In this document: positions 4,531 to 47,396 of the stretch, piece by piece
Position numbering within the stretch: position 1 is the first letter of the stretch
Layout of the letters: every line of letters starts with the position of its first letter
NCBI GenBank assembly: GCA_951406725.2
Contig: OX597821.1
Span: 14,384,001-14,448,000 of the forward strand
DNA: 64,000 bases
DNA from: Octopus vulgaris
Taxonomy: Eukaryota
Direction: 5' to 3'
Made by a program: the position numbers and the translations under genes
Notes under the pieces: model-generated
Seen by the model: only the letters and a program-made list of their open reading frames with translations
Databases searched by the model: none
What the model was told of the DNA's origin: nothing

Positions 4531-5052
4531 AACGTAAAGTATACTAGCCATCTCAATATGGCTAACCACTGAGGGTGGGTGTTACTGTAGCTTTTAGCCC
4601 CAGGAGATCATCGTCTCCAGCTGGCTTTAGGCACACTTTCTGTGCCCTTATGGTATTTGCAAAGGGAGGTCATCCCTCTCGTAAACCTAAGTGATACGCA
4701 CGGACTGCAGGTTCTAGGTATTGACCTGTCATCAGTGTACAACAATCACCAGTTTTCGATGAAGGGAGACCTGTTTGCAAATATTTATTTATTGCCGTAC
4801 GCCGAAGACAGGCAAATACCTAGAACCTGCAGTCCGTGCGTATCACTTAGGTTTACGAGAGAGGGATGACCTCCCTTTGCAAATACCATAAGGGCACAGA
4901 AAGTGTGCCTAAAGCCAGCTGGAGACGATGATCTCCTGGGGCTAAAAGCTACAGTAACACCCACCCCTAGTGGTTAGCCATATTGAGATGGCTAGTATAC
5001 TTTACGTTGTCGAGCAGTAACTGTTTACATCTCATTCAGAGATTTATTATTG
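4531..5052. mobile_element. Fold-back HHR element related to the 359-bp unit, with a 12-bp TSD
   Basis: Inverted arms at ~4531-4725 and ~4815-5010 plus a ~40-nt tail ending GAGATTTATTATTG. TSD ATTATAAACTTT at 4519-4530 and 5053-5064. HHR-like cores at 4796-4840 (+) and ~4697-4740 (-). Confidence 0.8.
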
Positions 5053-5809
5053 ATTATAAACTTTGTACTGTTGAATGTGTGGGATAAATTTCCCTCACTT
5101 ACAAAACAGTAAAATGCTGACAGTAGAAAAAGCATCTGGTTGTAAAAATACTGCTTCAAACAAGTACCTACCTAACCTAAACTAACATAATAAATTAACA
5201 TAAATCAAACAAAAATAAACACAACTAAACTAATTACTAGCCATATGTTTACTAGTTTTATTATTCAATTTACTTATAATCCATCTCTCCAATAATTGCA
5301 ATAATAATTTAACCCATCCATAAAGAAATGCTTTAATATATACATCTCTACTGACTTGAGCTATACACACCATTTGGTGCCATGAGCAAAACTATCATAA
5401 CACACTGGATGCCAAAAGCATCGATGATGGTTGGTACTTCATTTATAATACATTTAGTAAATAAGATTCTGTACAGGTCATTGATTATTATCTGTGAGCG
5501 GTATTTATAGAATGGTAAAGTTTTAAACTATAAACTTTCAAACCATGAGAAAGTGAGAAAAAGTAGGAAATGGTTAATAATAATCAAGTATTTTCACAAT
5601 TGGTTTGAAAAATCTTTTGATTCAGATAAAAGATTAGGGACTAATACTAAATATAGAAATCATTAAGGCATCACTGAGTCTTTACAAAACAAAATATCTA
5701 ACCCTTACAGTACATTAAGGTCTCATAGTACTGATAATATGAAACAGTTTAAGTTTGAGTTTGTTGTTTCAAGTATGCTGCTGAAACACATAAAAAAAGG
5801 TACAAGCAC

Positions 5810-6065
5810 ATCATCATCATCATCATCATCATCATTTAACGTCCGCTTTCCATGCTAGCATGGGTTGGACGGTTCAACTGGTGTCTGGGGAGCCCGAAGG
5901 CTGCACCAGGCCAGTCAGATCTGGCAGTGTTTCTACAGCTGGATGCCCTTCCTAACGTCAACCACTCCGAGAGTGTAGTGGGTGATTTTATGTGCCACCG
6001 ACATAGGTGCCAGACGAGGCTGGCGAACGGCCACGCTCGGATGGTGTTTTTATGTGCCACCGACA
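5810..6065 (-). mobile_element. Repeat family D with an (ATG)n tail (RTE-type 3' end, inferred)
   Basis: ...CCAACCCATGCTAGCATGGAAAGCGGACGTTAAATGATGATG. Copies at ~3300-3500, 10500-10685, 14675-14985, 25087-25250, 30200-30380, 33810-33990 and 58943-58982. Confidence 0.7.
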
Positions 6066-6165
6066 TCAGTCTTTTAATTTCCTTATTTTTAAGATAACAC
6101 TCCCAATATTTTATTAAACAGATAGAAAGGCCTAAAATATTTTGAGTTATAACTACAAACATTTT

Positions 6166-44144: not shown

Positions 44145-45175
44145 TACTCTTTTTACTCTTTTACTTGTTTCAGTCATTTGACTGCGGCCATGCTGGAGCA
44201 CCGCCTTTAATCGAGGAACTCGACCCTGGGACTTATTCTTTTGTAAGCCCAGTACTTATCCTATCGGTCTCTTTTGCCGAACCGCTAAGTGACGGGGACA
44301 TGAACACACCAGCATCGGTTGTCAAGCAATGCTAGAGGGACAAACACAGACACACAAACACACGCATATATATATATATATATATATATATATATATATA
44401 TATATATACACATACATATATATATATATGTTGTGGCATGCTGCTGGGAGTTGTGGCATGCTCTTATAATCCAGCTACTTGGATGTTTGTTTGATTGGCT
44501 GGTTTGAGGATGGGAATCCTGGTAGTCGGTCTTCTATGGTGATTGGATGTCCATGCTAAGCTTGGCCATGGTACCAGAGAGGGAGATCATCAGGACCCAG
44601 TTGCCTAAGGAGGGTCGCTTTGGCCCAGGGGCAGAAACACAGCAGGCAAAAGACACTGTGTTGAGCAGTAGTGAGATCTCACCTGTGAATAGTCATTGGA
44701 TGGCAGCCTGTTCAATACAACTGAACATCAATCTAATTAAAATAGGCGCAGGAGTGGCTGTGTAGTAAGGAGCTTGCTTCCCAACCACTTGGTTCCATGT
44801 TCAGCCAATGTGTGGAACCTTGGGCTAGTTTCTTTTACTATAGCCTCAGGCTGAGCAAAGCCCTGTGAGTGGATCTGGTAGATGGAAACTGAAAGAAGCC
44901 TGTCATATATATATATATATATATATATATATTGATTTCAAATTTTTGCACATATATATGTATGTATGTATGTATTTGTTTGTCCGTGTTTGTCCCCATC
45001 ATAGCTTGCCAACCAATGCTGGTGTGTTTACATTCTTGTAACTTAGCAGTTCAGCAAAAGAAACTGAAAGAATAAGTACTAGGCTTACAAAAAATAAGTC
45101 CTGGGGTTGATTTATTCGACTAAAGGTGGTGCTCCAGAATGGCAGTAGCTAAATGACTGAAACAAGTAAAAGAGT
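44145..45175. mobile_element. Two SINE A copies: a 3' half (-, 44145-44360) and a full copy (+, 44744-45175)
   Basis: Family consensus. Older copies lie at 13155-13452, 16318-16540, 17870-18035, 42810-43193 and 49320-49600. Confidence 0.8.
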
Positions 45176-46852
45176 GTGTGTGTGTATATATATATATATA
45201 TGTAAAATCAAGGACAAGGGAACAAGAAATTATGTAATGAACTTCATTAGCTAATAGCTGTTTCTGCTATACAATGAAATGCACTCATGGTTTGTTTCTG
45301 GTGGTTTTCTCAGACATGCTTTTAGTTATACAGCAAACACTCTCACCAGCCACACTGAAGAAACTAAATTATTACAGGCCGTCAATAGGTGTGATGATAA
45401 CTCAAAACTACAGAAACACCTGAATGCAATATACAAGTGAATTGAAGAAATAGTTCTGCTTTCAGCTCACAGACAATATGCAATCCAAATACACACAAAA
45501 TCAGAGGGCATCGCAATACTGGAATCACAGTTGGTGTATGATCTGAGAATCTATATAAATTATGATGTATCTTTATGTATGTATATTGCTAAGATGAAAA
45601 CAACATGAAGGTGAGGGGCTGATTGAATTCTGAGACCATTCAGAGCAAGGAAAGAGGAAATCATGTTGGTCCCATGGAAAACATTTGTTTTCTGTTGCTT
45701 GAGAAACTGCTCCCAATTATGGTTATCATATAATGTGTAAAACAGATGATCTTGAAGCAATCTGATGCTGTCACACCAAAAAAGACTGCCTCAGTGCAAC
45801 AGATGGACACCAAGGAGATGTTAAAAGAACTGATGCACTTTTCCTTAGAATGAAGACATGCAAGATGTGTGTGTGTGTGCATGTGTAATTGCAACTTGAC
45901 AACGCTTTGCGTATGCCAGCAAATTTATTTTTTGCTGCTTATATATAAAACAACAGTTCTTAGTGGGCTGTAAATGATGGATTCAGTGTGTGTAGCTGAT
46001 AGCATGTTACGACACAGAAACATTTACTCTATAAGTCCAATGATGTCATTCATATCCCAGCTTGATGTGTTTTTATGAACATTGTGGAAATGAAAAATTC
46101 CCTTCCAAAGCATTTACTGTTCCAGAATGGAATTCTCCTTATAGACAATATATATACATATATATATATGTGTGTACAATGTGCCACACAGTGTGAATTA
46201 GAGGGACTGAAGTCTAGTTAAATATTCAAAAACCTAACTGTGAGAGGGAATTATAAAAATCATAAATTATAAAAAAATTATTAAAATCTTTGCTTCCAAT
46301 GTTAAGTAATATCTGAACATTTTCAACTCCATGATTCTCAATGTGACAAAACTTCACAAATCTTTCAACTGTACCATTAAAAAGAAAAATAACCACGTCA
46401 AAGTCACATTAGACATATCTGATGCAGAATCTGATGAAACAGAATAATAATTATATTTCTTATCAAAGATACTGTCATATAGTGTGTTGGATTCAAACAG
46501 AATGAGGAATTTTCTATGTCTTATATAGGTATAGTTGTGCTTTCCATATTTGTTTATATAAACATGTATGTATATATATATATATATATATATATATATA
46601 TATATATATATATATATATATATATATATGATATATATATATATATATATATATATATATATAATATATAAATATATATATATATTTATAGATAAAAACG
46701 GTAAGATAAACAAAAGAAAGAAAGAGACCTCAATATTATGTAAATAGAGAAAATTTATCTATAAAATAATAGTCAAGATAAAACTCTGAGTTTTATCTTG
46801 ACTATTGAGTAATTGTAACATATTATTTTATATATATATGTATATATATATA

Positions 46853-47396
46853 GTGATGCATATTTGCCATTTGAATATGGCTAATCCATAAGGGTGGATG
46901 CTACTGTAGTTTGTAGCCCCAGGAAGATATCTCCTCCAGCTGGCTATAGACACACTATCTGTGTCCTGTCAGTATTTGTGAAGGGGAGTCATCCTGCCCG
47001 TCTTCAACACATGATACACATGTACCCGAGTTTCAAGGTGTTTACCTTTCATCAGCATGTGACAATCATGGTTGTCGATGAGAAGTCAGATCCCTTCACA
47101 AATACATATACTTTTTCCAGTGTCGATTTGACACTGATATTGAAAAAGTGAAATCAAACAATGATAAATCTCAGAGTGAGTTATAAACAGTAGCGGTAAC
47201 ACATCGTGATGCATATTTGCCATTTGAATATGGCTAACCCATATTCTATAGTCTATAGCCAGCTGGAGGAGATATCTTCCTGGGGCTACAAACTACAGTA
47301 GCATCCACCCTTATAGGTTAGCCATATTCAAATGGCAAATATGCATCACGATGTGTTACCGCTACTGTTTATAACTCGCTCTGAGATTTATCATTG
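46853..47396. mobile_element. Third subfamily: ~1.1 units of a 353-bp monomer (-) plus a short tailed arm (+)
   Basis: GTGATGCATATTTGCC recurs at 46853 and 47206. Inverted arm at ~47250-47396 ends GAGATTTATCATTG. Inserted in (TA)n. Confidence 0.8.
47017..47061 (-). ncRNA. Canonical type I hammerhead ribozyme
   Basis: Minus strand reads CACATG-CTGATGA-AAGGT aaac ACCTT-GAAA-C TCGG G-TA^CATGTG, with all core nucleotides canonical. Confidence 0.88.

Follow-up and report, generated by a model that had tools for sequence, protein, structure and literature searches.

A non-coding retrozyme family of Octopus vulgaris with a Penelope-like insertion footprint and a six-helix RNA block that likely positions reverse transcriptase at two start sites

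Introduction

Metazoan non-LTR retrozymes are non-coding tandem repeats with one type I hammerhead in each unit, known to have long target duplications and proposed to move with the help of Penelope-like elements (PLEs) (PMC7229834; bioRxiv 10.64898/2026.07.22.740005). The mussel units are 350–390 nt long and their circular RNA has been shown (PMC7229834), and a preprint already treats non-LTR retrozymes as non-autonomous PLE derivatives (bioRxiv 10.64898/2026.07.22.740005). Here, we describe a family that shares these features in Octopus vulgaris, found in a stretch of 64,000 nucleotides (the window; assembly GCA_951406725.2, contig OX597821.1, positions 14,384,001–14,448,000), in which a conserved block of each unit forms an RNA fold that likely positions a Penelope-type reverse transcriptase (RT) at two fixed start sites, called T1 and T2. 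The units are tandem, non-coding, and 350–365 nt long in seven subfamilies, within the ~170–400 nt of non-LTR retrozymes, with one type I hammerhead each, and the insertions are dispersed with long target duplications. Unlike in the two accounts cited above, there is a conserved non-ribozyme domain together with two fixed termini and inverted arms, and the octopus family is known here from contigs, whereas circular RNA was shown for the retrozymes of PMC7229834. The words "octopus," "cephalopod," and "inverted" have no occurrence in the text of that paper as available; here and below, statements about published systems refer to the parts of the sources that were at hand.

Inverted copies and a tail that is often present at one end only are known traits of PLEs (PMC3846280; PMC8557442). 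Endonuclease-containing (EN+) PLEs resemble the octopus family in their head-to-head inverted arms, a TATA box in the pseudo-long terminal repeat (pLTR), microsatellite targets, and the often one-ended tail, and they have target duplications of 8–10 bp compared with 9–15 bp here (PMC3846280; PMC8557442). The octopus family differs in having no open reading frame (ORF), a tail of 44–59 nt instead of 30–40 nt, and arms that may be long multimers; the rule of one T1 and one T2 arm, unlike in the EN+ PLE accounts, was counted in it as near-absolute. The closest biochemical parallel is PAc, a Poseidon element of Anolis, whose purified protein cleaves and extends the two target strands, with a pair of internal start sites delimiting the tail (PMC11167929). 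Two RT starts downstream of a hammerhead, AT-rich targets, extension of both strands, and a predicted dimer are common to both systems. However, binding in PAc maps to the first 172 nt of its ORF, whereas the octopus block is non-coding with a fold defined by covariation, and PAc has no start-site difference between the strands in vitro, whereas the strands use different sites in the octopus family (PMC11167929).

The class of element is known; what is new here is the fold, its test on the unseen subfamily G, and the fixed place of T1 within the fold. No literature was found that treats this family, a fold conserved at the start sites of PLEs, or a strict T1-plus-T2 rule, in a search that Repbase and Dfam lay outside. 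Similarly, the literature on octopus hammerheads, Penelope twin priming, and recent PLE structures held nothing on the family or the fold.

Monomers and subfamilies

The original prediction described one diversified family of three subfamilies, much diverged in sequence, with monomer periods of 357, 359, and 353 nt and a conserved composite motif. The periods recur as described (the terminus at 6295 and again at 6652, the array at 19404–21736, and position 46853 again at 47206), and the single family was borne out and widened to seven subfamilies (A–G). As a correction to the original prediction, subfamilies A, B, and C of the window are colinear over the full monomer (identity 51–69% with gaps counted), each with a hammerhead on the motif strand. 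Four further subfamilies, D–G, were found elsewhere in the genome, and the seven representatives have a mutual identity of 42–73%. The order on one strand is a hairpin, a TATA-like box, a long stem capped by a minimal type I hammerhead, the block, and the terminus.

The motif CCTGGGGCTA-N5-8-ACAGTARCA was matched at 13 places in the window and at 8,195 across the whole genome (2.8 Gb); its reversed control gave 0. The motif holds in the three subfamilies of the window, with a spacer of N7 at 6547 and a copy at 15553 that reads CCTGGGGTTA, but its literal letters are gone in D, F, and G. The subfamily A monomer is 100% identical at dozens of sites on many contigs, which marks subfamily A as very young. 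No PLE ORF is joined to the 350–365-nt monomers, and the arrays and arms contain no ORF for RT plus GIY-YIG, as an autonomous PLE would have; judged by sequence, the family consists of non-autonomous, non-coding, ribozyme-carrying non-LTR retrozymes. The block was also considered as a coding remnant and rejected, the frame being open in A and closed in B and C.

RNA fold of the block

In the first unit of the subfamily A array, the block is a six-helix RNA domain at 19455–19626 (+) that repeats every 359 nt, with T1 at ~19582 and T2 at ~19626; here, ACAGTAAC at 19515–19522 pairs with GTTACTGT at 19589–19596. The conserved letters fall into place within this fold: CCTGGGGCTA forms the 3' strand of a stem that contains an internal loop, the pairing partner of ACAGTARC is GYTACTGT ~65–75 nt downstream, TAGCCAT...ATGGC forms a hairpin, and GAGA closes the last hairpin of the block. 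The internal loop kept in helix 2 is symmetric.

The structure was chosen from a helix scan and the fold of eight monomers, and on the same alignment as was scanned (34 sequences less than 93% alike), 90.6% of its 31 pairs are kept and 12 have two-sided changes, a level that 0 of 500 shuffles reached. Subfamily G, which lay outside the covariance model, was recovered by it at E 2e-11; the letters of helix 3 in G are new but pair all the same, and G alone folds into helices 1, 2, 3, and 5 (z −2.9). This recovery is, on the covariance model, a stronger test of the fold than the covariation of the 34 sequences. In each of the seven subfamilies, T1 is located 15–18 nt downstream of helix 4 and precedes the 3' strand of helix 3 by 7–10 nt.

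The original prediction was to be refuted if the block were no more conserved than the rest of the monomer, and in sequence this is nearly so, the scores being 0.65 versus 0.54 over five subfamilies and 0.54 versus 0.50 over seven, but in structure it is not. The change of the letters with compensation fits an RNA structure rather than a DNA element. The earlier proposal of a cis element therefore stands in the sense of a structured RNA domain at the RT start sites, given the covariation and the fixed T1, and is not supported in the sense of a promoter. Rfam had no family match for the block, and ARAGORN found 0 tRNA genes in the window. Pattern matches in metagenomes were rejected as chance, because 0 of the 54 stretches fit the covariance model.

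Two termini and the insertion footprint

The sample of pairs comprised 67 head-to-head A, B, and C pairs from the window, from motif-picked loci of contig C1, and from array-picked loci, with five overlapping loci (L041, L048, L050, L057, and L058) and L164, which has the same junction as L157, left out before the count. All 57 classifiable two-armed insertions have one T1 arm and one T2 arm (p 7e-18 versus 50:50), and in 10 of the 67 pairs one end lies elsewhere than T1 or T2. The terminus GAGAWTTATYATTG of the original prediction thus recurs, but only one arm of each two-armed insertion ends there (T2), and the other ends ~45 nt earlier (T1). The T1 arm is the longer in 29 of the 57, and both arms exceed one monomer in 17. 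The inverted arms and the tail at one end, namely the T1-to-T2 stretch, are of PLE type; the targets are mostly (TA)n, and the duplications of 9–15 bp are those of non-(TA)n targets.

At the arm junctions, 32 of 57 overlap by 1–10 nt and 11 are blunt. The offset between the 5' ends of the two arms looks uniform (29 insertions, Kolmogorov–Smirnov p 0.22), with 2 of 29 within 40 nt. Among the 37 two-armed loci of subfamilies D–G, which were top matches to the queries, 26 are clear T1-plus-T2 insertions, none is T2 plus T2, one old copy has both ends near T1, and 10 have other or complex ends. L157 and L164, 1 Mb apart on C1, have an identical arm junction in opposite orientation, and are likely a later duplication of one insertion.

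Template of the arms

Within an insertion, the arms differ by 0.002 per site compared with 0.017 between insertions (33 subfamily A insertions), and 36 variants are fixed in both arms versus 11 discordant, six of these in L129. The low divergence and the shared variants are taken as support for both arms of one insertion having been copied from the same template. In L119, each arm carries two haplotypes, and their order is the same in the other arm, suggesting a heterogeneous multimer as the template. In L121 and L137, variants are fixed through all units of the insertion, a pattern as compatible with a circle as with a uniform source array. Hence, of the circular or multimeric templates first envisaged, the multimeric ones gain support, and the evidence is neutral on the circular ones. 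A circle as the only template was not accepted, given the haplotype order of L119 and the thinning of short arms upstream of the predicted cut described below. The end-to-start joint also occurs in genomic arrays (contigs being the only material examined for circular RNA). In addition, L117 and L122 have a variant in alternate array units (.C.C and.A.A), as from a dimeric template or a local duplication.

Hammerhead and candidate promoter

The hammerhead, identified by inspection at 19724–19769 (+), is of minimal type I with the core CCGAUGA...GAAA, a palindromic helix III, and a predicted cut after 19763. A pattern search recovered the hammerhead core together with its helices from all seven representative monomers, with helix III short and mostly palindromic; Rfam models do not detect the hammerheads of the family. 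As in the minimal PLE hammerheads, the short palindromic helix III suggests a dimer and the core has the U3–A8 covariation, here in subfamilies B and F; in contrast to them, A and G have a C at core position 4, and the activity is a predicted one here (PMC4209133). A possible minus-strand hammerhead of subfamily A turned out to be the 3' arm of the extended stem I.

Among the short arms (n=76), 19 of the 5' ends lie 0–35 nt past the predicted cut versus 4 in the preceding 36 nt (p 0.003), as if some templates were hammerhead-cut monomers, although stalling at the stem would look alike. The 5' ends of long arms are rarely at the predicted cut (1 of 46).

A TATA box at 19673–19680 and a candidate transcription start at 19703 (19673–19703, +) lie upstream of the hammerhead. 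The start was recognised by a loose end joined at 19703, 30 nt downstream of the TATA box, in a single unreplicated contig of run X1, a run guessed to be RNA; the loose end is presumably a cDNA template-switch adapter. This single hint makes it likely that the promoter lies elsewhere than in the block, since the TATA box and the candidate start are ~155 nt upstream of the motif, and it counts against the promoter that the block had been suggested to be. The stretch is present in 20 of 24 sequencing-run rows, none of these runs being recorded as RNA, and the rows were not used as evidence of expression.

Search for an autonomous partner

A partner was searched for genome-wide with the Pfam GIY-YIG model and three protein queries, followed by BLAST, nhmmer, and the covariance model over the loci. 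No block-bearing autonomous element was found in this partial sample of 140 GIY-YIG loci, whose fetched flanks would leave N-terminal-endonuclease elements outside; the possibility that all copies are pLTR fragments of an annotated element, raised with the original prediction, is therefore not borne out in these loci. The significant block matches at GIY-YIG loci proved to be retrozyme copies near PLEs rather than a partner: L098, L103, L094, L079, L278, and L393 were read as separate insertions, and L256, L270, and L285 were judged from alignments only. Two octopus Naiad consensi lack the exact motifs by exact look-up, and another Naiad has a single CCTGGGGCTA match, in letters only and unaligned (PMC8557442 supplement).

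An autonomous RT plus GIY-YIG element of this genome with a zinc-finger-like linker has the same T1/T2 layout in all six insertions for which both ends could be seen, and there is no homology between the 3' end of this element and the block. We take this element to be Neptune-like.

Several PLEs were recorded along the way. L098 and L393–L402 represent a young autonomous RT plus GIY-YIG element with a 4,271-bp unit, many intact 775-aa frames, a TATA box, a hammerhead, two termini ~30 nt apart, and an upstream ORF, and it offers a candidate enzyme for in vitro work. L091–L095, L254, L260, and L264–L288 belong to further PLE-like families, of which one has many intact 781-aa frames, a second has frames up to ~1,090 aa and a different GIY-YIG type, and another is old and degraded.

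Mechanism and alternative explanations

Taken together, we infer that the block is best read as a recognition and priming domain for the RT, in a retrozyme family with a PLE footprint whose six-helix fold likely places a Penelope-type enzyme at two fixed start sites. A more specific proposal, which we hold tentatively and at slightly less than an even chance, is that a Penelope RT dimer binds the block asymmetrically, so that both target strands prime on a single RNA molecule, one strand at T1 and its partner at T2. In the general scheme, read-through RNA would be made from the TATA promoters of the individual units, and the hammerhead would cleave some of it; the fold would be bound by a PLE protein acting in trans, which would cleave the two strands of AT-rich DNA at positions ~12 bp apart. 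With the resulting 3' ends as primers, cDNA synthesis on the same RNA would start at T1 from one end and at T2 from the other; microhomology would then serve to join both cDNAs, yielding head-to-head arms with the tail at one end only.

Several observations weigh against the priming-domain reading. RNAalifold alone predicts just 6 pairs on the 34-row alignment, the six-helix structure was selected on the alignment that tested it, and its covarying cells reflect few events. T2 follows helix 5 by 10–12 nt in A, B, C, and E but by 23–26 nt in D, F, and G. The D–G loci, being top query matches, were not selected blind to their ends, and L207 is the old copy with both arms ending near T1. The discordant sites count here as well, together with the arms of L111 and L126, which are out of register. 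Moreover, the candidate start comes from one contig of a run guessed to be RNA, and no block-bearing autonomous element was found among the 140 GIY-YIG loci of the partial sample.

The alternative that fares best is that the fold has been conserved because it stabilises circular RNA, aids circularisation, or controls the ribozyme, with T1 and T2 as no more than accessible AU-rich spots. It would suit the structure found throughout the monomer (z −3.8 to −6.7 for the sense strand in a circular fold), the long hammerhead stem that also covaries, and the highly self-paired circles of mussel retrozymes (PMC7229834). However, the distance of T1 to helices 3 and 4 is kept at 42–73% identity though the letters of T1 change, and the strict T1-plus-T2 pairing needs an organised two-site event, so we regard this alternative as unlikely.

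A slightly smaller chance is given to a single cDNA that folds back and copies itself, with an endonuclease cut or a fixed stop making the second terminus, in the manner of Penelope self-priming and resolution. Self-priming has been proposed (PMC3846280), as has EN-mediated resolution (PMC8557442), and the haplotypes shared by the arms, their common order in L119, and the short overlaps at the junctions would all follow from it. On the other hand, either arm may be the longer, which means that fold-back needs two different stopping rules; the uniform-looking offset of the 5' ends also speaks against it, and the T1 arm of L111 cannot exactly copy any run of its T2 arm.

It is improbable that all copies are 5'-truncated pLTR fragments of an unsampled autonomous PLE. 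The layout and footprint match a pLTR, and the partial search left N-terminal-endonuclease elements beyond the flanks, but upstream the arms continue into the preceding monomer, over as many as 15 units, and not into an ORF, a translated search of two local PLE proteins against the retrozyme loci hit two loci only, both separate neighbours, and the frames past the hammerhead are closed in subfamilies B and C.

Least probable is that the block is a promoter or a second, unrecognised ribozyme, for which the two short motifs outscore the hammerhead over five subfamilies (0.84 and 0.77 versus 0.61) and helix 2 keeps its symmetric internal loop, but the motif scores drop to 0.69 and 0.66 over seven subfamilies, no Rfam family matched, and the hammerhead is itself preceded by the TATA box and candidate start.

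Copies and other features of the window

The window holds five insertions of the family and one fragment. The first, of subfamily B, has an inverted arm at 4531–4789 (−) with its left end at T1 and a direct arm at 4791–5052 (+) that contains the hammerhead and block and ends at T2, flanked by the target duplication ATTATAAACTTT at 4519–4530 and 5053–5064. The second, also of subfamily B, has two short inverted pieces at 6166–6293 (−), the outer one ending near T1, and a direct arm at 6293–6664 (+) of one monomer plus 15 nt with a decayed hammerhead and a T2 end, within the 12-bp duplication TACAAACATTTT at 6154–6165 and 6664–6675. An isolated block fragment at 7684–7776 (−) was absent from the original prediction. 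A short two-armed B-like insertion at 15482–15585 has a minus arm at 15482–15566 (T1), a plus arm at 15563–15585 (T2), and the 12-bp duplication TATAAATATATC.

The subfamily A insertion consists of a short inverted arm at 19264–19405 (−), with its T2 end within (TA)n, and an array at 19404–21736 (+) of 6.5 units of 359 nt with 99% matches, which starts at the predicted hammerhead cut and has its T1 end in (TA)n. The subfamily C insertion has an inverted arm at 46853–47243 (−) of one monomer plus 38 nt (period 353) with a T1 end and the hammerhead core CTGATGA at 47055–47049 (−), and a direct arm at 47251–47396 (+) with its T2 end in (TA)n. As had been noticed, the copies longer than one monomer (6293–6664, 19404–21736, and 46850–47243) pass through the terminus.

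The subfamily C insertion sits in the (TA)n end of another hammerhead repeat at 46775–46830 (+); this stretch, L094:730–790 (−), and L104 hold the 3' part of that other family, and nesting in (TA)n next to other PLE ends recurs (L039 and L393). The 64 kb contain four exact-motif insertions compared with ~0.14 expected from the C1 sample, an excess that is local and not significant genome-wide because the window was picked post hoc.

Among the unrelated features, a 393-aa open frame at 62096–63280 (−) matches Pfam Ion_trans (E 4e-55), with the Rfam K_chan_RES model at 62528–62641, and by these matches is identified as an exon of a voltage-gated potassium channel gene. A Metazoan signal recognition particle (SRP) RNA match at 44443–44736 (+), with 137.6 bits, is a gene or a retrocopy. 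RT frame fragments unrelated to the family lie at 22300–23746 (+) and 31315–31845 (−) and are presumably of the long interspersed nuclear element (LINE) type.

Significance

The formation of the PLE inverted repeat and one-sided tail is still called undefined in the literature at hand, in which the RNA features recognised by the RT are unmapped. Seven diverged, non-coding templates of ~350 nt with a shared fold and fixed starts amount to a natural mutagenesis series, which indicates where helices should be disrupted in the in vitro assay already available and which start sites it should yield. The footprint ties retrozymes to PLE enzymes beyond similarity alone. If asymmetric priming by a dimer is true, no earlier template-recognition fold of a telomerase-related retrotransposon RT would have been defined by covariation, and a single reaction would account for both the tail and the inverted pLTR as its obligatory products.

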